Notes under the pieces: model-generated | What the model was told of the DNA's origin: nothing | What the model saw: the letters and a program-made list of their open reading frames with translations, nothing else | Database searches by the model: none | Shown: piece after piece, positions 1 to 60,300 of the stretch | Numbering within the stretch: the stretch's first letter is position 1 | How the letters are laid out: the number at the start of each line of letters is the position of its first letter | Translations under genes and position numbers: made by a program | Source of the DNA: Candidatus Palauibacter polyketidifaciens | GTDB lineage: Bacteria > Gemmatimonadota > Gemmatimonadetes > Palauibacterales > Palauibacteraceae | NCBI RefSeq assembly: GCF_947581785.1 | Contig: NZ_CANPVO010000038.1 | Span: forward strand, 117,049 to 181,048 | DNA: 64,000 nucleotides | Direction: 5' to 3'

Positions 1-103
1 CGCAACCGCCACGCCCGCGCAACCAACACCGGCCGTTCCGCATATTCCGTCGCACAACTCGGACGCCTCGAGTTTCGCTTGGATCGACCCGCACATCCTA
101 GTC

Positions 104-129
104 GTTATCGTGCTTGAATGTTCGATAAC
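104..129. promoter_or_regulatory. 7-bp inverted repeat GTTATCG-N12-CGATAAC in the low-GC leader upstream of the XRE/ImmA gene; candidate operator
   Basis: Palindromic arms read directly (104-110 and 123-129). Sits ~60 bp upstream of the HTH regulator start. Local GC is far below the window average. Confidence 0.3.
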
Positions 130-186
130 AGCACGGTAGATTTGAACGGAGACGGCAAGGGTGAAGAGAGGGATTACTGACGAGGG

Positions 187-1467
187 GTGACGCGCATGAT
201 CGACCCGGTGCGATTGGCGGAGCGACTCCGCGAGGCGCGCGAGGCGCACGGCTTGAGCCAGAAGGAAGTCGCCGAGGCGCTGGACGTGCCCCGCTCGGCG
301 GTGAGCAAGATCGAGAGCGGCCGACGCGCCGTCTCGACGTTGGAACTCACGAGAATGGCTGACCTGTACGCCCTCTCCGCCTCGTTCTTCCTCTCGGACG
401 AGGGGGAACGGCGGAGCGAAGACCTGGCCCATGTCCTCCTGCGGGCCCTTCCCGAAACCCGAGAGGATCCGCAAGTCGCGCACGCCGTGCGCTCCAGCGT
501 GTTGCTGTGCCGGGAGGGTGCCTCGCTTCGGCGACTTCTGGGTCGGGCCGTTGAACCGACGGTCCCCAGTTACGCCGCACGGACCGGATCCACGAGCGAT
601 GCGATTCGGCAGGGAGAGGCCGTCGCCCGGGAGGAGCGGCGCCGCCTCGGACTCGGCGATGTTCCAATCCGGAGCGTGGCCGGACTCATCAGTGATCAAG
701 GTATCTGGGCCGCGGCCACCGGATTGCCCGACGGCCTGTCCGGGCTGTTCGTGAACCACCCGGATGTCGGTTTCGCCGTTCTGGTCAACCGGCGGCATGG
801 CGAAGCTCGACGGCGATTCTCCTACGCGCACGAGTACGCACACGTCCTGTTCGACCGCGACCGTACGATCACAACGTCGCGCCGTGACAACGCCTCCGGG
901 CGTCTGGAGACGAGAGCCAACGCCTTCGCGGCGGCATTTCTCATGCCGCCGGGCGGTGTCGCCGAGCAGCTCGAACGAATGGGCAAGGGACGCCCGAGCC
1001 GGAACGCCCAGGCCATCTTCGATGTCGCCAACGATTCCGCGATCACGGCGGAGATCCGCACCCGGCCGGGATCCCAGGAGCTCACGTACGCGGACGTGGC
1101 CGTCCTGGCGCGACATTTCGGCGTCAGCTTCGAGGCGGCGGTTTGGCGGCTCAAGAGTCTGAAACACACGTCCGCATCCGAATCCGCCGCTCTGATCGAG
1201 CAGAAGAACATTGGAAATCGGTACATCCGGATGCTGGACCGGAGCCCGCACGACGGGGCTTGGGACCCGGACGCGCCCGAAGGCGTCTCCGCCCGCGGCG
1301 TGGGGGCCGGTCACGACCGGGAGCTGCGCGGCCAACTCCTCCGCCTCGCAATCGAGGCGTTCCGCCGGGAAGCGATCTCGCGCGGACGGCTGCTCGAGAT
1401 CGGTCGGAGACTCGACATCGCCGGCGACGACATGCTCGACGTCGCGATGGCCGCCCGGCCTTGCTGA
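187..1467 (+). CDS. XRE-family HTH fused to an ImmA/IrrE (COG2856) zinc metallopeptidase domain
   Basis: The N-terminus (LSQKEVAEALDVPRSAVSKIESGRRAVSTLELTRMADLY) is a classic XRE HTH. The HEYAHVLFD segment gives the HExxH zinc-peptidase motif of the ImmA/IrrE family. 426 aa. Confidence 0.8.
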   Translation: MTRMIDPVRLAERLREAREAHGLSQKEVAEALDVPRSAVSKIESGRRAVSTLELTRMADLYALSASFFLSDEGERRSEDLAHVLLRALPETREDPQVAHAVRSSVLLCREGASLRRLLGRAVEPTVPSYAARTGSTSDAIRQGEAVAREERRRLGLGDVPIRSVAGLISDQGIWAAATGLPDGLSGLFVNHPDVGFAVLVNRRHGEARRRFSYAHEYAHVLFDRDRTITTSRRDNASGRLETRANAFAAAFLMPPGGVAEQLERMGKGRPSRNAQAIFDVANDSAITAEIRTRPGSQELTYADVAVLARHFGVSFEAAVWRLKSLKHTSASESAALIEQKNIGNRYIRMLDRSPHDGAWDPDAPEGVSARGVGAGHDRELRGQLLRLAIEAFRREAISRGRLLEIGRRLDIAGDDMLDVAMAARPC

Positions 1468-1496
1468 TTCGAGAGCGCCCGCTGCGGGGCGTCGTT

Positions 1497-2414
1497 GTGG
1501 CGGACACATGCGTGCTGCTGAACTTCCTCCAGATCGACCGTATGGACCTGATCGGAGCCCATCCGGATGCGTTCATGGCCACGGACCATGTGGCAGCCGA
1601 GATCACAGACCTCGCGCAGCTCGAGCGCTACGAAGAGGCCCGCCGAGCGGGTTTCGTCGCGGAAGAGCACGTCACCCACCCGGCCGAGCTGGAGATCTTC
1701 CTTCGTCTCGAAGGTTCAGGACGCCTCGGCGCAGGAGAACGATCTGCCATCGCGGTCGCCCTGAATCGCGGCTACCGTCTCGCAACGGACGACAACAAGG
1801 CCATCAAGCGGGCGGCGCGGGAGGCGGCCGTGGCCTCGCGGGAACTCCGTTTCGTCCGCACGGAAGACATCGTGACGGAACTGATCCAGCACGGAGCGCT
1901 GACGATCGCGGCGGCCGACGAGATGCTCACCGACTGGGCGGCGAACCATCGGAGGGTGGCGCAGCGCGTCAGCGAAGGGGGACACGACATCCCGGAGCCA
2001 GTTGCCCGTCGTCGGTTCGAGCGAAGCTGGGACAATTTCGTCTCGTTGTACCGCCCCATTGCAGACGAATGGCAGGTCTACGACACTTCGAGCCGGTCCC
2101 CAATCCTGGTCGCCGCCTCGGAGCGTAACGACATCCTGCCGCTCCTTCCCAGCGGCTGGCGCATCCGAGAGTTGCCGACCGCGGTGGACGCAGACCGGCG
2201 GGACCTCTCGGACGATCCCACAAGGAGAAGCGCCATGACGGAGGACAAGAAGCAGGCTCCGGACAGATTCCCGGAGGGAGAGCCTTCGATACAGAACGTG
2301 ATGATCGCCTTGAGACAGGCGCGGGACGACGCGCTGGCGCGCGCGGCAGCCGTTAGGCGAGGGGAAGCCGAGGCCGCGCGGGCCGAGAATGCGACATCCA
2401 CCGCCGAGAACTGA
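1497..2414 (+). CDS. PIN-domain protein with a C-terminal segment resembling the tail of zeta-toxin/COG4185-type ATPases (no P-loop)
   Basis: The PIN acidic residues are in place: VVADTCVLLNF, AAEITD, GAGERSAIAVALNRGYRLATDD and RTEDIV. The C-terminal RRVAQRVSEGGHDIPEPVARRRFERSWDNF resembles the conserved tail of zeta-toxin-like ATPases; this is from memory, not a search. The ORF frame opens right at the stop of the upstream gene (TGA 1465-1467). The start is uncertain: CTG at 1464 or GTG at 1497. Confidence 0.55.
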   Translation: MADTCVLLNFLQIDRMDLIGAHPDAFMATDHVAAEITDLAQLERYEEARRAGFVAEEHVTHPAELEIFLRLEGSGRLGAGERSAIAVALNRGYRLATDDNKAIKRAAREAAVASRELRFVRTEDIVTELIQHGALTIAAADEMLTDWAANHRRVAQRVSEGGHDIPEPVARRRFERSWDNFVSLYRPIADEWQVYDTSSRSPILVAASERNDILPLLPSGWRIRELPTAVDADRRDLSDDPTRRSAMTEDKKQAPDRFPEGEPSIQNVMIALRQARDDALARAAAVRRGEAEAARAENATSTAEN

Positions 2415-2423
2415 TATGGAGCG

Positions 2424-3389
2424 ATGAGTACAGAAAACGTTGTCATCATCGGCTCGGGCCCCGCCGCCTGGACGGCGGCAATTTATGCGGCCCGGGCGAA
2501 CCTGAATCCGCTCGTGTTCGAAGGTGCGGGGAGCCGCACGATGATCCCGGGTGGGCAGCTTATGTTCACAACTGATGTGGAGAACTATCCCGGTTTCCCC
2601 GAAGGGGTTAGCGGCATCGACATGATGTTGGACTTCAAGAAGCAGGCGCTACGTTTCGACACGCGCGTGTTCACCGAGGACATCGTGGAGGTCGACTTCT
2701 CGAGCCGACCCTTCCGCCTGCGCTCGTCCGGGAAGCAGGAGGTGCTCGCGGAGACCGTGATCGTGGCCACGGGTGCCAACGCGCGCTGGCTCGGCGTGCC
2801 GGGCGAGGAGCGGCTCGCGCAGAGCGGCGGCGGGGTGTCCGCGTGCGCGGTGTGCGACGGCGCCCTGCCCGTCTTCCGGGACCAGGTCCTCGCCGTCGTG
2901 GGAGGCGGCGACAGCGCGATGGAGGAGGCGCTCTACCTCACGAAGTTCGCGAGCGAGGTGCTGCTCATCCACCGGCGCGACGAACTGCGGGCGTCGCAGA
3001 TCATGCAGGAGCGGGCCCTCGCCAGCGACAAGATCCGCTTTCTCTGGAACCGGACTGTGGAGGAGGTGTTCGGGGACGACGCGATCACCGGCCTCCGCCT
3101 TCGCGACACGGTGACGGGCGAGGCGTCGGAGGTCGAGGTGGGCGGGATGTTCGTGGCCATCGGCCACATCCCCAACACGGCGTTCCTGCAGGGCCAGGTC
3201 GACCTCAAGGAGAACGGCTACGTCGACATGCCCACGCCGTGGCGCACGGACACGAACGTGCCCGGAGTGTTCGCGGCCGGCGACGTCATGGACGACTACT
3301 ACCGGCAGGCCGTCTCGGCGGCGGGCACCGGCTGCATGGCCGCCCTCGACGCCGAACGCTTCCTCGCCCACAACGGCGCCGCCGGCTGA
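2424..3389 (+). CDS. trxB: thioredoxin-disulfide reductase
   Basis: The FAD-binding N-terminus [19 protein letters not shown], the redox-active CAVCDGA motif and GVFAAGDV are all present. 321 aa. Confidence 0.9.
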
Positions 3390-3445
3390 CCGCGGCCCGA
3401 TCGCTCTGCGCCTGTCTGGCGAGCGCCGGGCAACGAATCACCGGA

Positions 3446-4975
3446 TTACCAGAAGATGATGTAGAGGACGGCGGCGCCCGCGATAACGCCTCCGGCCCAG
3501 AGTCCTGCGCGGGGAGCGGGCGTCAGATCCACTCCGTCCGCGGCCCGGGGCAGCCGGCGCGGGGCATCGAGCGGGCGCGCGCGCGTCACGAGGACGATGT
3601 AGGCGCCGATCGCGAGGAAGGTGATCGCCATGTGGTGGAGGAACGCGACCTCCGGCAGCAGCCACAGGAGGAGGCCGTAGACGGGGATCCCGAGCAACAT
3701 GCCGCCGAAGGCCGCGGCGGGCGGCGTGCGCGGCGCGAAGATGCCGAACAGGAACGCGGCCACGATCCCCGGTGAGATGAACCCCCAGAACATCTGGATG
3801 TACTCGAACACGCTCGGCGCGCGGGCCACGACCGGCGCCCACAGGCACGCCACCACGACGAGCACCCCCGTCGTCACCCGTCCCACCACCATGAGGCGCC
3901 GCGATGACGCCTCGGGCCGCAGGTGCCGCTTGTAGAGGTCCACGCTGAAGATCGTCGCCGCCGAGTTCAGCATCGAGTCGAGCGAACTCATCACGGCCCC
4001 GAACAGCGCCGCGAACATGAGGCCCGTCAGCCCGGCGGGGAGGAGTTCCCGCATCATCACGGGATAGGCCTGGTCCGGGTTCGTCACCTGATCCGCGAAC
4101 AGCTCCGCCGCCATGATCCCGGGAAAGATGATGATGAACGGGATGAACAGCTTGATGAAGCCCGCCAGGAAGAGCCCCCGCTGCCCGTCCGCCAGGCTGC
4201 GCGCCGCCAGCGTGCGCTGCGTGATGAACTGGTTCAGTCCCCAGTAGAAGATGTTGGGGATCCACAGGCCGCCGATGAAGACGGCGACCCAAGGCATCTC
4301 CGGGTGGTTCCACGGGAGGACGGTGTGGAGCTTTCCGTCCGCCGCCTCGAGGAAGGGGCCGATGCCGCCCATGGCCCGGAACCCCAGCACGGTCACGAGC
4401 ACGCCGCCGAGGAGGAGCGCCACGCCCTGGAGGAGGTCGGACCACACGACCGCTTTCAGTCCCCCGTAGATCGTGTACCCGCCCGCGAGCACGCCGATGA
4501 GCCAGGTGCCGGTCCCCGTGTCGAGGCCGAAGATCGACTCCAGGGCGAGCGCGCCCGAGTACAGCACGGTCGCGAGGGCCACGAGCACGTACGCCGCGAG
4601 GATGAACGCCGCCATCAGCGTGCGCGTACGCACGTCGTACCGGAACTCGAGATATTCCGGGATGGTGTAGATCCCCGCCGCGAGGAACCGGGGCAGGAAG
4701 AAGAGTCCGACGAGGACGAGGGTGACGGCCGCCATCCACTCGTAGCTCGCGATCGCAAGCCCGATGTCGTAGCCCCGCCCCGCCATCCCCACGAAATGCT
4801 CGGTGGAAATGTTCGAGGCGATGAGCGAGAAGCCGATCAGCCACCACGGCAGGTTGCGCCCGGCGAGGAAGTACCCGGCCGCGTCCCGCCGCCCCCGCGA
4901 GGCATACAGCGACACCCCCACGACCAGCAACAGAAAGCCCGCGAACGCCGCAACGTCGAGCGGCCGAAAGTTCAC
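3446..4975 (-). CDS. sodium:solute symporter (SSS) family transporter
   Basis: A multi-TM protein with an SSS-type N-terminus (YFLAGRNLPWWLIGFSLIASNISTEHFVGMAG). 509 aa. Confidence 0.85.
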   Translation of the reverse strand: MNFRPLDVAAFAGFLLLVVGVSLYASRGRRDAAGYFLAGRNLPWWLIGFSLIASNISTEHFVGMAGRGYDIGLAIASYEWMAAVTLVLVGLFFLPRFLAAGIYTIPEYLEFRYDVRTRTLMAAFILAAYVLVALATVLYSGALALESIFGLDTGTGTWLIGVLAGGYTIYGGLKAVVWSDLLQGVALLLGGVLVTVLGFRAMGGIGPFLEAADGKLHTVLPWNHPEMPWVAVFIGGLWIPNIFYWGLNQFITQRTLAARSLADGQRGLFLAGFIKLFIPFIIIFPGIMAAELFADQVTNPDQAYPVMMRELLPAGLTGLMFAALFGAVMSSLDSMLNSAATIFSVDLYKRHLRPEASSRRLMVVGRVTTGVLVVVACLWAPVVARAPSVFEYIQMFWGFISPGIVAAFLFGIFAPRTPPAAAFGGMLLGIPVYGLLLWLLPEVAFLHHMAITFLAIGAYIVLVTRARPLDAPRRLPRAADGVDLTPAPRAGLWAGGVIAGAAVLYIIFW

Positions 4976-4982
4976 ACTTGTC

Positions 4983-5201
4983 TCACGTCATCGCGTCGCG
5001 GAGGGTCTGCCTCGCTTCTTCGTGCCGGCTGGCGGGCACGCGGAGGACTTTTGCGGCCGCCGTCGGGCCCCAGGACACGGGTGCGAACTCCCCTTCGACC
5101 CTGAAGGGGATGTCGTCCGCCTCGAGGGCGAGCCGCGCCGCGAGGAATTCGCTCTCATCCCACGCCTCGAACACGCGGACCATGTCCTCGCTCCGTGTCA
5201 C
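4983..5201 (-). CDS. small DUF2007-like (putative signal-transducing) protein co-transcribed upstream of the SSS transporter
   Basis: 72 aa. The pattern VRVFEAWDESEFLAARLALEADDIPFRV...KVLRVPASRHEEARQTL matches the DUF2007 consensus as I recall it. It lies 8 bp upstream of the transporter start. Confidence 0.45.
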   Translation of the reverse strand: MTRSEDMVRVFEAWDESEFLAARLALEADDIPFRVEGEFAPVSWGPTAAAKVLRVPASRHEEARQTLRDAMT

Positions 5202-5211
5202 GTCGCCCCCA

Positions 5212-5682
5212 TCATGATGAAGCAGGGATCTCTTCGATGTCGGCGGTCCAGGTCACCTTGATCGCGCCCTCGAGCGAGCGGGCGGTGGGGCACTTCGCGC
5301 CGTGGCTGGCGAGCGCGCGCTCCACCGTCTCCCGGGCCTCGGCGGGGATTCGGAGCCGGTAGTGGACGATGATCTCCTCCAGCGTGGGCATGCGGTCGCG
5401 GAGGCGGTTGATCCCCTCCACTTCGGCGGCGATGTCGTCGGGGGCCAGGCGGATGCCGCGCACTTCCAGTGCGCCGTTGAGCGTGCCCAGCATTCAGGCG
5501 CCGGTCGCGGCCACCTGGTAGTCGACGGGGAGCGGCAGATCTTTCGCGTCGATCCGGTAGTGGGACTTGATGGGTCCGTGGACGCCGAAGTCGATCTCGG
5601 TCCCCTCTTCGAGGCGGGCCCGGCGATGCACGCCTCCGATCTTTTCGAGACGCGCGCGGGCAGTGTAGAACGGTTCGGACAT
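5212..5682 (-). CDS. OsmC/Ohr-family peroxidase interrupted by an in-frame TGA (5494-5496) at the position of the first catalytic Cys; selenoprotein candidate or pseudogene
   Basis: Two adjacent same-frame ORFs (5494..5754 and 5212..5493) are separated only by TGA. The joined protein carries the OsmC C-terminal motif HGAKCPTARSLEGAIKVTW. The TGA falls in the segment QVAATGA-[TGA]-MLGTLNGAL, which aligns with the OsmC first-Cys motif AAhAAC-FsMaL. AGGAGA lies 7 nt upstream of ATG 5682. Confidence 0.6.
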
Positions 5683-5778
5683 GATGTGCTCTCCTTTACG
5701 AAGCCGCCTTCCCTGTCGCATTTTCGGGCGGCGAGATTCGGGCGGGACGCGCAAACGGAACGATCAAGAGCAACCAGC

Positions 5779-10617: not shown

Positions 10618-13017
10618 ATGCGCGGATTTTCACGAGTCGCGGCCCTTGGGGCCGCCTTCGCCTGCCTGGCCACGCCAGTCACGGGACAGGGTTTCGGACG
10701 CGGCCCCGCCGTCGCGGTCTCCTCCGGCCAGGTCCTCATCGCCGAGAGCGGCGGCCCGACTTCGACGGGAGCCGTCTACGTGTACGAGCGAGGTCCGGAT
10801 GGATGGGCCGTCTCCGCGGAACTTGCGCCCTACGCGGCGGAAGAGGGCGGCCGGTTCGGGATTTCGCTCGCGGTCGACGGCGACCGCATGCTCGTCGGCT
10901 CACCCGGCGCGGCCCACGTGTTCGAGCGGAGCGATGGAGGTTGGGAGGAAGTCGCGACGCTGACGCCGGCCGACCTGCCGGAAGGCAACGTCTTCGGTGC
11001 CGGCGGGGCGATCGCGGGCGACCTTGCGATGGTGGCCGCGACCGGTCAGGGGGGCCGCGGGAGACCCGGTGTCGCCGGCCGCGTCCATTTCTTCGAGTGG
11101 GACGGCTCCGCCTGGAATGAAGCCGGAATCGTCGAATCCCCCGAGGCGGCCGCCGGGGACGGCTTCGGCGCCGCGATGATCACCGATGGCCGGGTGGCGG
11201 CGATCGGTGCTCCCGGGACCGCCGTGGGCAATACGAACGGCGCCGGTGCGGTCTTCTTCTTCACCCGGGCCGATGACGGGACGTGGACGGCGGCGCCGGA
11301 ACCGCTCACGGCCCCGGAAGCGGGCGCGAACGCGGGCTTCGGAGGCGTCCTGCACGGCGAGGACACCGAGGACGGCTTCCGGCTCGTCGTCGGAGCCCCC
11401 GGTGCCGGGGGCGTGGGCATCGCCTACACCTTCACTCCCGATGGCGATGCCTGGAGGCCCGAAGGCCGGCTCTATCCGCCGGTCGTAGCCGGGGACGGCC
11501 GGTCCTTCGGCGGGAACTTCGCCAACGCCTTCGCGGCCGTGGGCGGAGAGATCTGGATCGGCGGGTCCGGCTCCGGCGCGGGCCGCGAGGGGCGGGTGCT
11601 TCGCTACTCGACCGACCCGGCTGGCGGCGTGGAGCTCGCCGGCGCGGTCTCCGCCTCGAACCGGGCCGCGGGCGACGGCTTCGGCGGCAGCCTCGCCGCG
11701 GAGGGCGGCGTCGCGGTCGTCGCGGCGAGCCGCAAGGACTACGGGATGGGGACCGCCTACATCTTCGAGCGGCAGGGCGACGAGTGGGTCGAAACCGCCG
11801 AGGTGTGGAGCGACGCGACGAACTACGCGGCGATCAACGGTCACGAGGTGGGCTGCGAGGAAGGGGTGTCGGCCGACTTCGACTGCAGCGAGGTGAACAT
11901 CCTCTCCTTCATGCCGGTGCAGTCGCTCGGGGCGAACCGCGGCGTCCGCGTCAACGACGTGTGGGGATGGACCGATCCGCAGACCGGTCGCGAGTACGCC
12001 CTCGTTGGGCTCACCGACCAGGCTTCGTTCATCGACATCACCGACTCGCAGAACCCGCGCTACATCGGGCGTCTTCCGATGACGGAGGGCGCGCGGGGCA
12101 GCGTGTGGCGCGACATCAAGGTCTTCAGGGATCATGCCTTCATCGTTTCCGATGGGGCGGGCGACCACGGGATGCAGGTGTTCGACCTCTCGCGCCTGCG
12201 CGACGTGGGGAGCGAGCCGGTCACCTTCGAGGCGGACGCCCACTACGATGGGATCGCGTCCGCGCACAACATCGTGATCAACGAGGAGACGGGCTTCGCC
12301 TACAGCGTGGGATCGAGCGGCGGCGGTGAGACGTGCGGCGGCGGCCTCCACATGATCGATATCAGCGAGCCGACGGAGCCGAACTTCGCAGGCTGCTTCG
12401 GGCACGAGGGCACGGGGCGTCGCGGCACCGGGTACTCGCACGACGCGCTCTGCCTCATCTATGACGGCCCGGACCGCGAGCACGCCGGCAAGGAGATCTG
12501 CTTCGGATCGAACGAGACGGACGTCTCGATCGCCGACGTCACCGACAAGGACAATCCGATCCCCCTGTCGACGGCCACGTACGCGAACGTCGCCTACGCC
12601 CACCAGGGCTGGGTGACGGAAGATCACCGTTTCTTCTACCTGGGAGACGAACTCGACGAACTGAGGACGCAGTTCTCGGGTACGCGGACGATGATCTTCG
12701 ACATCACCGACCTCGACGACCCCGTCCTCGTGAAGGAGCACTTCGGCGAGTCGACGGCGAGCGACCACAACATGTACGTGCTCGGCGACCTGCTCTATCA
12801 GTCGAACTACAACAGCGGACTCCGGATCCTGAACGTGAGCGACCCGGAGAATCCGATCGAAGTCGGCTTCCTCGACACCGTGCCCCATGCGGAGGGCCCC
12901 GCGATGGGCGGCTCGTGGAGCAACTATCCGTACTTCGCGAGCGGGACGATCATCGTGACGAGCGGGAGCGAAGGCCTGTTCATGGTGAAGTACCAGAAGC
13001 CGGAGCTCGTTCCGTAA
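10618..13017 (+). CDS. secreted two-propeller protein: N-terminal FG-GAP-like repeats plus C-terminal LVIVD / choice-of-anchor-B-like beta-propeller (paralog A)
   Basis: Signal peptide (MRGFSRVAALGAAFACLATPVTG). Repeated G-aVYVYERGPDGW-type blades occur about 7 times. The C-terminal NDVWGWTDPQTGREYALVGLTDQASFIDITD...GMQVFDLSRLRD block is LVIVD-like. Paralogous to 16096..18564. Confidence 0.7.
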   Translation: MRGFSRVAALGAAFACLATPVTGQGFGRGPAVAVSSGQVLIAESGGPTSTGAVYVYERGPDGWAVSAELAPYAAEEGGRFGISLAVDGDRMLVGSPGAAHVFERSDGGWEEVATLTPADLPEGNVFGAGGAIAGDLAMVAATGQGGRGRPGVAGRVHFFEWDGSAWNEAGIVESPEAAAGDGFGAAMITDGRVAAIGAPGTAVGNTNGAGAVFFFTRADDGTWTAAPEPLTAPEAGANAGFGGVLHGEDTEDGFRLVVGAPGAGGVGIAYTFTPDGDAWRPEGRLYPPVVAGDGRSFGGNFANAFAAVGGEIWIGGSGSGAGREGRVLRYSTDPAGGVELAGAVSASNRAAGDGFGGSLAAEGGVAVVAASRKDYGMGTAYIFERQGDEWVETAEVWSDATNYAAINGHEVGCEEGVSADFDCSEVNILSFMPVQSLGANRGVRVNDVWGWTDPQTGREYALVGLTDQASFIDITDSQNPRYIGRLPMTEGARGSVWRDIKVFRDHAFIVSDGAGDHGMQVFDLSRLRDVGSEPVTFEADAHYDGIASAHNIVINEETGFAYSVGSSGGGETCGGGLHMIDISEPTEPNFAGCFGHEGTGRRGTGYSHDALCLIYDGPDREHAGKEICFGSNETDVSIADVTDKDNPIPLSTATYANVAYAHQGWVTEDHRFFYLGDELDELRTQFSGTRTMIFDITDLDDPVLVKEHFGESTASDHNMYVLGDLLYQSNYNSGLRILNVSDPENPIEVGFLDTVPHAEGPAMGGSWSNYPYFASGTIIVTSGSEGLFMVKYQKPELVP

Positions 13018-50716: not shown

Positions 50717-51279
50717 TCAGGTCACCCGCGTGATGTACTTGTTTTCCGTCCTGTCGACGCGCACCACGTCGCCGGTTTCGAGGAAGAGCGGCACCTGGAT
50801 CACGGCGCCGGCCGCCAGCCGGGCCGGCTTCGTTCCGCCCTGGGCCGTGTCCCCCCGCACTCCGGGGTCCGTCTCGACGATCTCCAGCTCGACGAATTGC
50901 GGCAGTTCGACCGCGAGCACGACGCCGTCACGGTTGAGGCTCTGACACTCCATGTTCTCCTCCAGATACTGGAGCTGGTCCTCTCCGATCTGGTCTCCCG
51001 ACATCGGAATCTGTTCGAAGGTCTCCATGTTCATGAAGTAGTACAGGTGGCCGTCCGTGTACGTGTACTGCACGGGTCGCCGTTCCAGACGCACCTCCCG
51101 GACCTTCTCGCCGGCGCGGAAGGTCTTGTCGATCACTCCTCCCTCCATCACGTCCTTGAGTTTCGTGCGGACGAAGGCGCCGCCCTTTCCCGGCTTGACG
51201 TGCTGGAAGTACGTGATCGAGTAGAGGGTGCCGTTGAGTTCGATCACCATCCCTCGACGAAAATCCGAAGTATCTGCCA
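50717..51279 (-). CDS. efp: elongation factor P
   Basis: [43 protein letters not shown]...; 187 aa. Confidence 0.95.
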
Positions 51280-57391: not shown

Positions 57392-60300
57392 TCAAAAGCG
57401 CCGGGGGCCCAGCCCGCCGCCACCGAAACCGCCCTGGCCGTCCTGCGTCTGCTGGTCGTAGTCGAACTTGAGATCGGGCGCATCCTGGAGGCTCACGCTC
57501 ATCTGGAAGATGAAGTTCCCGTTCGGCGAGCGGGCGAACATGAAGGTCGCGATCCAGCGGTGCAGGGAGCGGTCGAGCGTGATGAGGTGCTCCCCGAACT
57601 CCTTGTTGGTGAGGTTGTACGTCGTCCGCCAGGCGAGACGCCAGCTCGGCGACGGATTGAGCGAAAGGACCGCGTTGAGCGACTGCCGGTCCTGTGCACT
57701 CTGCTCCGCCCGGCCGCGCTGAAGGGAATAGGTCAGGGCCAGCGTCCACGGGCCGCCGGCCCGCAGGCCGGGGTCCGCCGGATCCGGATTCTCGTCGAAA
57801 CTCTGCAGCCGGTATCGGGAGTCGGCCGCATTCCGCAGGCGGTTCTGGGGGTCGGATCCGCCGCCTCCACCCCCGCCGCCCAGTCCGAGCAGCCCGCCGA
57901 GACCGCTGGCCGAACTGAACGTGAAACTGCCCGTCAGGCTCGAAAGGATGGGGGCGAACATCCGATCCTCTCCGGTGCCGTCGAACAGGTCGAGAGACAT
58001 GTTCAGGGACAATCCCCTGAGCAGATCCGAGTTGATGCGGTGCGACCAGCGGTCCGTCGTCAACGGCGACTCGTTCTCGCGGGACCAGTCGAAGGTGAGC
58101 GGACTCGAATTGATTCCCAGGAGGACGACGTTCCGGCGTGGCTGCGCGCGGCGCGGCGCATTGGGGTCCCCCGTGTCCGGTCCGGTGCCGGCCGGCGCCG
58201 CCTGCGGGGCGGCTGCCAGCCCCCGGGCAGCCTCGTCGGGATCCTCTTCGGCCGGTTCGGCCTCCGGCGCCTGCACTCCGGCCGAATCGCCGGCCGCCGC
58301 GAGGGAATCCGCCTCGGTCGTCGCCGCGCCGGACTCCAGGTCGGTCGAATCCGCTTCGAGCGAGCGGCCCTCCAGCAGCGCTTCCGCTTCGGGATCGAGT
58401 TCGACCTCCTCGCGCAGCTTGGCTTCGAAGGTCTGGTTCAGGGTGATGCGAAGCCGGTTCTCCTGCTTCGAGTTCGACACCGGAAACCCGGGGATCGCAA
58501 GCAGGGAGTCGGAGGCCTCCACGGCCGGCGAATAGTCGTAGTGAAAGCGCGGTGAGACCTTGTGGCGGATCCGCTCGAACGGGCCGACGCCGGGGAAGAA
58601 CCCGTAGAGATCGGTGGACACCGCGGCTCCGAAGCGGAGACGCGTCGGCGCGGTGATGAAGTCTCCGTTCGTGTCGTCCGACTGAAACCGGCTCGCGTCG
58701 ATGCTCAGGGTGGGACGAAGCGTCGTGCTCCCGACGAGATCGATCTGGTATTCCGCCTGCGCCCCGTAGTCCAGCTTCGAAACGCTCCCGGGCGTCGCGG
58801 AGGCCGTGGTGTCGGCGCCGGGCATCGGCTGGAACGGAAGTACGGTGTTCCGGTTGAAGTTCGTCCGTCCGCTGACCCCGAAGGAGCCGATGCGGATGGC
58901 GCTGTTCGCGGACGCCACCTCGGTTCTCTTGCCGTCGTTCTCTTCCTGGGTCCGGTCGAGGCGCGAAGCGGAGAAGGCGCCGTTGACGACGATGTTGTTT
59001 AACGGCCCGCTCCGGTTGCGGGGCGCGCGGAAGAGGGTCAGTGGCGAGAAGGTCATCTGAAGCTTGGGCAGCGTGAGGTCCGTCCGCCCCTTCTGCGCCC
59101 CCAGATCCTGGCGCCGGCTTCCGCTCAGGTTGACGGACGCGAAGGGGAACCGGTGCTGGACTCCGACGTCCGACGCGATTCGTTGCGTCTGGACCGTCGG
59201 GTCGAAGGTCTGACGCTCGAAGACGCTCGTGTTCGAGATGAAGTTGGCGTTGACCCGTATGTCCGTGACGGGGGTCAGCTCGTGATTGTGGCGCATCTGA
59301 AACTGCAGGGTCTTCTCGTTCCCGAAACTGTAGCTCGCGATGACGTTGCCCCGGAAGAACTTCTTGATCGAGCGGTATCGGAAGGCTCCGTTGAGGCGCG
59401 TGAACCGTCCGCTGAACCAGTCGGCCGTCGCCTGCGCGTCCATGAAATCGTTCCCCGCGAAGTAATACCCGAAGTCGGTGATGCTCCGCCGGGCGTTGCT
59501 GGAGGACGCCACGACATCGTTGAACCCGAAGCGCGGGGGCAGGAAGCCGCTCCTGCGTTCCTCCCGGATGTCCTGCGCAAAGAAGGGAAGCCAGGCGACG
59601 GGCACGTTCTGGATGTAGAGGGTCACGGGCCAGGCCACGACGATGTCGTCCGAGACGACCTTGATCTGTCCGGCGCGGAAGTAGTAGTGCGGTTCGTCGA
59701 GGTCGCACGACGTGAAGTTCCCGGTCTCGACGAAGGCGGTGCCGGAACCCCGCATGGTCATGAGCCCCCTGATGAACCAGTCGGCGCCCTGCTGGGCGAA
59801 CGACGTTCGCGCATCCACGACGGTGCCCTTGGTGGAGGAGACATCGTAGTTCAGACACTCGTCGGAGATCACGTTCTCCCCCTCCCCGGAGAGCGAGATG
59901 TTGCCGCACCCTCTCACAAACTGCAGACCCGCCTCGTAGGTGATCGTGTCCGCGTCGATCGTGGACTGCTCGTACATGACCTGTGCCTCTCGATTGAGCT
60001 GCACACGCTGCCGGTCGACGTCCAGCTCGACGCCGCGCCCCTGATACTGGATGGCCTGATAGCCCGGCTCCCCGAGGAGTTGTCCGAAGATGTCGTCCTG
60101 TTGAGGGAAGGGGGGGTCCGGCGGACCGGCATCGACGGTGTCGGCGACCACCGAATCCGCGACCGCGGCCGCCACGGCGCTCGAATCGCCGACCGCTGGA
60201 GAGTCAACCGCTGCCGAGTCGCCGACCGCTGCCGAGTCGCCGACCGCTGCGGAATCGCCGGCCGCCGTCGAATCCGCCACGGGCACGTCCAGCGTATCCC

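Follow-up and report, generated by a model that had tools for sequence, protein, structure and literature searches.

A deletion-fused PIN-like gene behind an Xre-M78 regulator in Candidatus Palauibacter polyketidifaciens

Here we describe the beginning of a 64,000-nucleotide stretch of DNA from Candidatus Palauibacter polyketidifaciens (Gemmatimonadota; RefSeq assembly GCF_947581785.1, contig NZ_CANPVO010000038.1, positions 117,049 to 181,048, forward strand), which we refer to as the window. The original prediction had placed a toxin-antitoxin (TA) or defence cassette at bases 1 to 2,414, i.e. an Xre-type helix-turn-helix (HTH) protein with an ImmA/IrrE zinc-peptidase domain (gene 1), which is coupled to a complete PIN toxin (gene 2). 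Gene 1 could be confirmed. Gene 2 proved to be an in-frame fusion that arose by deletion and not a complete PIN toxin; only its first ~164 residues are PIN-like. The features of the locus, in window coordinates, are listed below.

1-22, minus strand: probable 5' end (TTG start region) of a divergent gene of a TPR/FG-GAP cluster, the remainder of which lies outside the window
23-195, no strand: low-GC divergent intergenic region (GC 0.575 over bases 1-186)
104-142, plus strand: candidate cassette promoter/operator, with an inverted repeat, a conserved box and possible -35 and -10 elements
196-1467, plus strand: gene 1, 423-residue Xre-HTH/M78 (ImmA/IrrE, COG2856) zinc-peptidase protein, RmrA-like (Pfam, PADLOC, fold)
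226-384, plus strand: Xre-type HTH, gene 1 residues 11-63 (Pfam HTH_3/HTH_31)
778-984, plus strand: M78 peptidase core, gene 1 residues 195-263 (Pfam PF06114)
1303-1452, plus strand: C-terminal three-helix domain, gene 1 residues 370-419 (AlphaFold2 model)
1461-2414, plus strand: chimeric open reading frame (ORF), 317 residues from TTG 1461 (305 from GTG 1497), the halves of which match two unrelated families
1461-1951, plus strand: PIN-like (COG2405/DUF3368) part, residues 1-164, with the C-terminal motif RFxLKxxSFxxL missing
1949-1951, plus strand: deletion junction, a TCG microhomology shared by both sides (blastn breakpoints, alignment with L001 and L006)
1952-2414, plus strand: remnant of a zeta-toxin-like AAA_33 ATPase gene, residues ~112-264 of 264 (identity to P0002)
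2424-3389, plus strand: trxB, thioredoxin-disulfide reductase type (Pfam Pyr_redox_2, 3e-51), a neighbour outside the cassette

The regulator and the chimeric reading frame

Gene 1 begins with the ATG at 196 (an alternative GTG lies at 187) and ends with the TGA at 1465-1467. Its HTH matched HTH_3 with an E value of 2.1e-15 (56.9 bits, cut-off 23) and its peptidase core matched PF06114 with 4.5e-16 (59.2 bits, cut-off 22), which agrees with the proposed fusion of an XRE-HTH to an ImmA/IrrE (COG2856) domain carrying HEYAH. This zinc motif was read from the sequence at nucleotides 829-843 (residues 212-216); H212, E213, H216 and E238 are invariant among 36 gene-1 homologues, and by analogy to IrrE the latter residue would be the third zinc ligand. 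In PADLOC, 15 profiles of RmrA, the antitoxin of RosmerTA, matched gene 1 (best PDLC03947, 4.1e-30), with a match that spans profile positions 12-260 of 383, i.e. the HTH and M78 part, and CapP matched at 1e-17. The AlphaFold2 model, with a predicted local distance difference test score (pLDDT) of 83, consists of the HTH, helical linkers, the M78 core, a disordered stretch and a C-terminal three-helix domain. The best match of this model in the PDB was CapP (7t5t, 1.9e-5), followed by IrrE/PprI (IrrE 3dti, 6.8e-4), and its HTH fold matched the controller protein C.BclI, DdrO, ImmR and CapH. Full-length homologues of ~410 residues with 50-60% identity are found in Alphaproteobacteria, Cyanobacteria, Acidobacteriota and others.

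The C-terminal domain follows a linker (residues 351-370), which is disordered with a pLDDT below 50, and its helices (370-390, 396-405 and 410-419) were modelled with a pLDDT of ~90. At E ≤ 1, the UPF0175 family (PF03683) matched 26 of the 36 gene-1 homologues, always within the last ~50 residues; the best of these matches (3.2e-6, 27.2 bits) is sub-threshold with respect to the gathering cut-off of 27.9 bits, and one homologue (P0193) holds a precomputed PF03683 entry. According to PMC5499597, UPF0175 (COG2886) is a putative antitoxin that occurs exclusively with COG2405 toxins. Because of this reported association, a tethered cognate UPF0175-like antitoxin domain on gene 1 is an attractive but unproven idea, and profile searches failed to strengthen the link. 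Among the PDB sequences, a profile of the C-terminal domain matched nothing but designed helical repeats, and these matches were spurious. An exhaustive profile search with the same domain retrieved 298 proteins, and the short ones that were inspected among them were fragments or frameshifted copies of the gene-1 family, with no free-standing UPF0175 protein. As a separate observation, a 184-residue protein (P0326) combines an Xre HTH with the C-terminal three-helix domain and is without the M78 peptidase, a variant that may have arisen naturally by an internal deletion in the regulator.

The tight coupling of the two genes that had been proposed is indeed present, since the in-frame TTG at 1461 precedes and overlaps the TGA at 1465-1467, giving a 7-nt overlap, and the frame is open from before that stop. 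The TTG start agrees with the PIN-like family, and a start at GTG 1497 would drop the first beta-strand (VVVAD); the NCBI annotation of the identical protein also uses the 317-residue form. In searches with this translation, the first half retrieved PF11848 (DUF3368) proteins of ~175-198 residues, and the second half retrieved Candidatus Palauibacter proteins of ~265 residues, which are named 'AAA family ATPase' and carry AAA_33 and Zeta_toxin matches. The alignment tracks the PIN-like family to '...DWAANHR' and then the ATPase family from 'RVAQRVSEGGHDIPEP...' to the end. Close relatives have three separate genes, encoding the Xre-M78 protein (423 residues), a DUF3368 protein (198 residues) and an AAA_33 protein (264 residues), which are followed by trxB. 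These three-gene relatives are the loci L001-L004 (93-98% nucleotide identity), L006 and L007 (~90%), L011 from Ca. P. rhopaloidicola and L012 from Ca. P. ramosifaciens.

Using blastn, positions 1-1951 of the window were aligned to L001 5948-7898 and positions 1949-5696 to L001 8330-12061, so that 434 bp (L001 7899-8332) are missing from the window. The junction adjoins an imperfect ACCAT repeat. In L001, the PIN and AAA_33 genes overlap by 4 nt in different frames, and the loss of 434 nt (2 mod 3) has therefore joined the two frames into one. The lost DNA comprises ~34 last codons of the PIN gene, including the motif RFxLKxxSFxxL, and ~111 first codons of the ATPase gene, including the Walker A sequence GPNGAGKT. 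Since these segments are conserved in the families of both proteins, we conclude that the event was a deletion in the lineage of the window and not an insertion elsewhere.

The chimeric ORF is covered by a continuous frame of GC content at third codon positions (GC3), and the fusion is a real allele and no assembly artefact. The metagenome-type assembly and a microhomology of only 3 nt at the junction would fit a collapsed or mis-joined contig produced during assembly or binning, and we consider this possibility extremely improbable. Across the junction, the independent Logan contig L005 (SRR10996928) matches 2,933 bp of the window at 100% identity. Moreover, the identical fusion protein (P0205) is deposited as MDE2720991.1/WP_310784431.1, a hypothetical protein of Ca. 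Palauibacter polyketidifaciens, and four further proteins of fusion length are found in ENA, NCBI and Logan, with 0-2 amino-acid differences among the alleles.

Several lines of evidence identify the first half as PIN-like. Precomputed Pfam records assign PF11848 (E ≤ 1e-5 class) to homologues as well as to the identical protein P0001, and the PADLOC models for PDC-S70, a PIN-nuclease candidate (PMC12988326), matched the gene 2 ORF at 5e-8. The AlphaFold model of an intact homologue (P0003, pLDDT 88.5) has the alternating strand-helix pattern of a PIN fold. Among 31 sequences, D15, D42, E47, E93, D110, D111 and D136 are invariant or at least 90% conserved, and all of them are kept in the window; by analogy to the PIN family these acidic residues would be catalytic. 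The homology stops at residue 164, and F165, S171 and F172, which are at least 90% conserved, are deleted. The deletion starts directly after the last core helix (149-163), and the next conserved segment is modelled as a short helix (172-178). Because the near-invariant C-terminal motif is lost and 153 foreign residues are added, the PIN part of the chimera is most likely crippled. In PDB sequence searches, neither the intact PIN nor the intact ATPase found a useful match.

We also observed that the Palauibacter PIN protein, with 198 residues, is longer than the ~175 residues of the family, and that the sequence LMIRERPVP near its end echoes the N-terminal MLIRERPLP (~60% nucleotide identity; L001 7408-7437 and 7931-7960, the first copy corresponding to window 1461-1490). 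This weak direct repeat (LIRERPL/MIRERPV) at the ends of the PIN gene could be a scar of recombination or duplication.

Residues 165-317 of the chimera (153 residues) are 97.5-100% identical to residues ~105/112-264 of the 264-residue ATPase P0002. The intact P0002 matched AAA_33 (7.6e-12) and Zeta_toxin (9.5e-6, 25.6 bits, cut-off 22.3), and the Pfam scan of the remnant gave no match. The remnant is without Walker A (GPNGAGKT) and ~111 N-terminal residues, and hence without the kinase core; judged from its sequence, the ATPase part of the chimera is certainly dead because the P-loop is missing. In comparison to L001, it has 3 synonymous and no non-synonymous differences, which leaves the ratio of non-synonymous to synonymous substitution rates (dN/dS) uninformative.

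In Palauibacter, the AAA_33 ATPase is a recurrent neighbour of trxB, directly upstream of it in L001, L006, L012 and L009, where it overlaps the start of trxB. It lies at 1952-2414 in the window, 6001-6804 in L008, 6001-6828 in L009 and 6301-7104 in L093, and carries a conserved C-terminal extension of ~100 residues (…APDRFPEGEPSxxNVMIALRQAR…). No antitoxin-like partner is evident for the intact AAA_33 in L008 and L009.

Distribution of the cassette and its history in Palauibacter

In a genome scan with one genome per species, 131 matching stretches were found, from which 80 loci were kept. The PIN subfamily occurs in Alpha- and Gammaproteobacteria, Acidobacteriota, Planctomycetota, Spirochaetia, Thermodesulfobacteriota, Binatia, Gemmatimonadota and others, and across these phyla a gene-1 homologue is located directly 5' of the PIN gene on the same strand in 79 of the 80 loci. 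The sole exception is L026 (3001-4821) from Neoroseomonas marina, where the gene-1 homologue is convergent and 49 nt away. The pair of regulator and PIN gene is also carried by conjugative or mobilizable plasmids of Rhizobium, Sphingopyxis and Methylomonas; on pSFD01 it lies between an Abi fragment and a pair of methyltransferase and DEAD-helicase genes. AAA_33 accompanies the pair in two of the 80 loci, both from Palauibacter, and is found without the cassette in L008 and L009, with trxB as the next gene in the latter. Homology between cassette-free loci and L001 begins exactly at the AAA_33 ATG. Since regulator and PIN are paired in nearly all loci and AAA_33 also occurs without them, we conclude from gene order that the predicted functional unit is a two-gene cassette and that AAA_33 is a resident neighbour caught by the deletion. 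Adjacent, co-directional and tightly coupled genes with a conserved pairing are what is found in type II TA systems. Thus, the predicted cassette stands as a genuine mobile two-gene module, and falls with regard to an intact toxin in the window. A search of a phage collection found no PIN homologue. A prophage or integrative-element reading of the ImmR-ImmA type was considered and rejected, as the flanks of the cassette are free of integrase and phage genes in all Palauibacter loci.

The first 186 bp have a GC content of 57.5% compared to a window mean of 69.5%, as had been noticed before, and only 0.28% of the 186-nt sliding windows over the whole window are as low. What had been taken as a low-GC leader of the cassette is a divergent intergenic region that carries a conserved promoter/operator-like motif. 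It contains the inverted repeat GTTATCG (104-110)/CGATAAC (123-129) with a spacer of N12, which encloses the box ATGTTCGATAAC (118-129), and possible -35 (TTGAAT, 114-119) and -10 (TAGATT, 137-142) elements at a spacing of 17 nt. The box is invariant across L001, L005 and L006 and recurs in L011 and L012. The right part of the leader (~100-186) is conserved in L006 despite a different upstream neighbour gene, and by this comparison it belongs to the cassette. Upstream of gene-1 homologues, GTTCGAT and TTGACA were found in 27 and 34 of 68 loci, respectively, compared to 1 and 0 of 67 in a coding control. The recurrent form of the box across many phyla is TTGACA-N6-GTTCGAT, with a fixed 12-nt offset, and a second GTTCGA/ATCGAAC box is often located 30-42 nt upstream of the first. 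Such an arrangement would be expected of an operator that overlaps a promoter and serves autoregulation. A scan for consensus promoters and terminators found no promoter and a single terminator-like site, which is on the minus strand. Since Rfam and tRNA scans of the whole window gave no matches, the leader is no known RNA element or tRNA-linked integration site.

Within the genus, the state of the PIN and AAA_33 genes differs between loci as follows.

L001, L006, L011, L012: PIN intact; AAA_33 intact
Window: PIN truncated and fused; AAA_33 truncated and fused
L096: PIN present as two out-of-frame fragments, with residues 70-120 (E93, D110/D111) missing; AAA_33 broken too
L093, L094/L095: PIN absent, with a gap of 28 nt from gene 1 to AAA_33; AAA_33 intact
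L097: PIN absent, gene order AAA_33, gene 1, trxB; AAA_33 intact
L092: PIN absent; AAA_33 fragmented

Gene 1 is an uninterrupted ORF in all loci of this list. Its dN/dS was 0.11-0.21 in the PIN-bearing clade, 0.23-0.30 between four PIN-less lineages (dS 0.47-0.72), and 0.28 and 0.40 in two pairs that include L096. The genus-wide pattern is therefore one of repeated loss of the PIN toxin and retention of the Xre-M78 regulator under purifying selection, and this repeated loss of the partner makes a working toxin in the window doubtful. For the C-terminal domain of gene 1 (53 codons), dN/dS was 0.29-0.74 in comparisons with lineages without an intact PIN versus 0-0.23, a rise that is no more than a hint.

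Gene-1 homologues, with 60-96% amino-acid identity, are located near trxB and/or AAA_33 in every gene-1-bearing Palauibacter locus examined (trxB was not seen in L092), and even in distant Palauibacter genomes homologues with 60-66% identity have the same neighbourhood. The GC3 of the cassette genes (0.79-0.81) is ~1-1.6 standard deviations from that of the window genes (0.855 ± 0.04), so there is no strong compositional anomaly in the coding parts, and a recent transfer based on composition was rejected for them because their GC3 lies inside the range of the window. Owing to the shared neighbourhood and the ordinary GC3, the cassette looks long-resident in the genus and not freshly acquired, and the recent horizontal acquisition that had been suggested for this lineage could not be upheld. 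Synteny across the lineage at core GC, which the original prediction had named as evidence to the contrary, was in part observed.

Comparison with known systems and interpretation

HTH-DUF955(M78) proteins together with COG2405 are listed among predicted TA or defence modules in two surveys (Makarova 2009, PMC2701414; Matelska 2017, PMC5499597). The Palauibacter locus and the Xre-HTH/COG2856/PIN-like modules have in common the domain set, the order (fused HTH-M78 5' of COG2405), the coupling and a patchy, mobile distribution. The differences are that the PIN of the window is truncated at its 3' end and fused to an ATPase remnant, and that the gene-1 subfamily appears to add a tethered C-terminal UPF0175-like domain to what is described there. 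In RosmerTA, the protease-containing RmrA is the antitoxin and the toxins are variable (Ernits 2023, PMC10440598; Millman 2022, preprint 10.1101/2022.05.11.491447), and in NetFlax the ImmA/Rosmer node is associated with PIN-like domains (PMC10440598). Gene 1 matched RmrA (4e-30) over the HTH and M78 part, and an ImmA-type protease antitoxin would be common to both; beyond ~260 of 383 profile positions the C-terminal half differs. None of the RmrT profiles in PADLOC matched the gene 2 ORF or its intact homologues, which matched PDC-S70 only, so that the locus is not RosmerTA by the PADLOC criteria.

The 'VapBC-like' pairs of UPF0175 and COG2405/DUF3368 have the same toxin family, and the tails of gene-1 homologues show sub-threshold similarity to UPF0175. 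In the present case, the putative antitoxin would not be a free protein of ~90 residues but the tail domain of a 423-residue HTH-peptidase. ImmR/ImmA (ICEBs1), DdrO/IrrE-PprI (Deinococcus) and CapH/CapP (CBASS) all combine an Xre repressor with an M78 metallopeptidase that inactivates it upon stress. In those systems, two proteins control large regulons, mobile elements or CBASS, whereas here HTH and M78 are fused in one chain that would control a single nuclease gene. As to zeta toxins and AAA_33 (COG4185-type) P-loop kinases, the intact neighbour gene in relatives matched both profiles; the window keeps the lid region and a lineage-specific tail of ~100 residues, and Walker A is gone. The class of an HTH-DUF955 fusion 5' of COG2405 is already catalogued and the additions made here are modest, current views not being overturned. 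Specific to this study are the deletion-fusion allele, the series of toxin loss within one genus, the possible UPF0175-like tail of the regulator and the family-wide upstream box.

Taken together, we consider it likely that the locus is a two-gene cassette of this catalogued class, of the type II TA or RosmerTA-like kind, which has lost its intact toxin in the window, and the module is probably decaying. By analogy to ImmR/ImmA, IrrE/DdrO, CapH/CapP, RosmerTA and the predicted three-component Xre/COG2856/PIN systems, we infer DNA binding, neutralisation, a protease trigger and toxicity. In an intact cassette, the partner would be a COG2405/DUF3368 PIN-like nuclease of ~175-198 residues, the start of which overlaps or abuts the gene 1 stop. 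The HTH of gene 1 would bind GTTCGAT-type boxes overlapping the promoter and repress the operon, and the gene-1 protein, plausibly via its tethered UPF0175-like domain, would hold the nuclease inactive. A stress or infection signal could then activate the M78 peptidase, as in ImmA/ImmR, IrrE/DdrO and CapP/CapH, and relieve repression and/or neutralisation, upon which the freed PIN nuclease would cleave RNA and arrest growth. COG2856 proteins alone were non-toxic upon overexpression in Streptococcus pneumoniae or Escherichia coli (PMC4257102), which fits the nuclease as the effector. In the window, a microhomology-mediated deletion of 434 bp has produced the in-frame fusion of PIN and ATPase.

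Several points weigh against this interpretation of a toxin-losing cassette. The local Pfam-A scan for PIN/DUF3368 gave no match for the ORF, its halves or the intact homologues even at E ≤ 10, nor did the NCBIfam scan. Because both were empty, the PIN assignment rests on the precomputed Pfam entries, PADLOC and structure; by the Pfam check alone, the PIN nuclease of the original prediction would stand refuted, and the precomputed PF11848, PDC-S70 and the fold of the homologue spoke for a PIN domain. The discrepancy between precomputed and local PF11848 results is likely a difference in Pfam version. Gene 2 matched no RmrT profile and is hence outside the PADLOC definition of RosmerTA. With regard to the antitoxin domain, PF03683 gave no match to the gene-1 protein of the window at E ≤ 10, and the UPF0175 similarity of the homologues falls below the Pfam cut-off; in addition, the C-terminal domain is conserved in PIN-less genomes, which argues for a role beyond neutralisation of the PIN. 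The accessible literature reports no experiment on the HTH-M78/COG2405 subfamily, and toxicity, neutralisation and protease targets are put here as predictions. Finally, the fusion alleles are nearly identical, so that too little time has passed for relaxed selection to be seen, and the chimera might be active, since none of its conserved acidic residues is lost and its predicted PIN core is kept through helix 149-163.

The latter point is also the main support for a module that is still a working TA or defence pair, in which the fusion would be an active nuclease neutralised by gene 1 and its tail would be tolerated or add a property. The fusion is in frame with a continuous coding-type GC3, it is found in several assemblies, one of which is a metagenome-assembled genome at NCBI, and gene 1 is intact and still overlaps the start of the chimera. 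Against this, the near-invariant C-terminal motif (F165, S171, F172) is gone, the PIN gene was independently deleted or broken in sister lineages and is hence dispensable in the genus, and the alleles are too alike to reveal selection for the fusion; we therefore regard a working pair as unlikely, with some real chance of being correct. Rather unlikely in our judgement is a more elaborate scheme, in which the ~410-residue gene-1 family would be a single-chain sensor, repressor and antitoxin with a tethered UPF0175-type neutraliser of the COG2405 PIN. Its M78 protease would cut its own tether, or that of a partner copy, and thereby free the toxin, and in Palauibacter the regulator would have outlived the toxin and been kept for a new job, e.g. 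stress-responsive control of the trxB region or immunity to incoming copies of the cassette.

A domestication of gene 1 as an IrrE/PprI-like stress regulator of the AAA_33/trxB region, with the PIN as a dispensable leftover, would explain why PIN-less lineages keep an intact gene 1 under purifying selection. In most of the loci that were compared, gene 1 precedes trxB in the same orientation (in L097 as its immediate neighbour), the scan of the window found no terminator-like site on the plus strand between the two, and the fold of gene 1 resembles that of IrrE/PprI, IrrE being a redox/zinc-activated protease. However, AAA_33 and trxB are adjacent without gene 1 in L009, several unrelated genes separate gene 1 from trxB in L093 and L094, and the same pattern would result if an orphan antitoxin were retained for anti-addiction, so we give domestication only little credence. 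A single three-component system of Xre-M78, PIN and zeta-like AAA_33 kinase, of which the fusion would be a 'Rosetta-stone' sign of coupling, appears very improbable to us. The overlaps of the genes in L001 (7 nt and 4 nt), the adjacency of gene 1 and AAA_33 without PIN in L093 and L094, their proximity in L097 (in opposite order, with a gap of ~340 nt) and the Zeta_toxin match of the intact AAA_33 above the Pfam cut-off (25.6 versus 22.3 bits) are in line with it. Yet L008 and L009 have AAA_33 but neither gene 1 nor PIN, 78 of the 80 cassettes are without AAA_33, it matched no defence model in PADLOC, and the homology of cassette-bearing and cassette-free loci starts exactly at its ATG. Moreover, the P-loop is deleted in the fusion, which leaves no ATPase function to couple.

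For the annotation, it follows that the 317-residue 'hypothetical protein' deposited for this species joins fragments of two unrelated genes, and that neither a PIN toxin with a new type of C-terminal domain nor a part of an intact TA or defence system should be seen in it. The genus offers a natural series in which the PIN is intact, fused, internally deleted or absent and the Xre-M78 regulator is retained. A testable idea is that the widespread HTH-M78/COG2405 class neutralises its toxin via a tethered UPF0175-like domain.

Genomic neighbourhood

Positions 1-2933 of the window correspond to L005 1362-4294 at 100% identity, and a minus-strand gene is called in L005 at 1-1383; in L001, the start of the upstream TPR-type gene is called 15 nt further upstream. 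By this comparison, the window edge is placed at or just inside the start of the divergently transcribed TPR gene. At the other end, trxB, which had been predicted downstream of the cassette, is indeed found 9 nt past the stop of the chimeric ORF. In those relatives in which trxB was observed, it has the same orientation as AAA_33 and/or gene 1 and is located 3' of them, in some as the next gene and in L093 and L094 at a distance of several genes.

Compared to L001, dS varies several-fold along window positions 196-3386 (gene 1 0.20, PIN part 0.07, ATPase remnant 0.03, trxB 0.16), which suggests a mosaic ancestry or recombination among strains. Further short stretches with a GC content of at most 0.60 are located in the window at 50861-51151, 59151-59301, 60691-60791 and 12621-12691.

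The slot between the TPR gene and AAA_33 is a variable region among relatives. It is occupied by an AAA_16/nSTAND-type NTPase in L009 (4538-5728) and L092 (3114-4304) and by DUF5128 genes in L006 (5304-6569), L093 (7419-9736) and L094, and insertion sequence elements (rve transposases) are located near it in L008 and L092. On the 3' side of trxB, classical VapBC-type pairs, i.e. PIN-RHH and/or PIN-PhdYeFM, flank an SSF transporter gene in relatives (L006 10428-11086 and 12758-13436; L009 7834-8492 and 10160-10838; L096 8442-9165). Both pairs are missing from the window (compare 3390-5000) and from L001, and the TA content around trxB thus differs strongly between close relatives.

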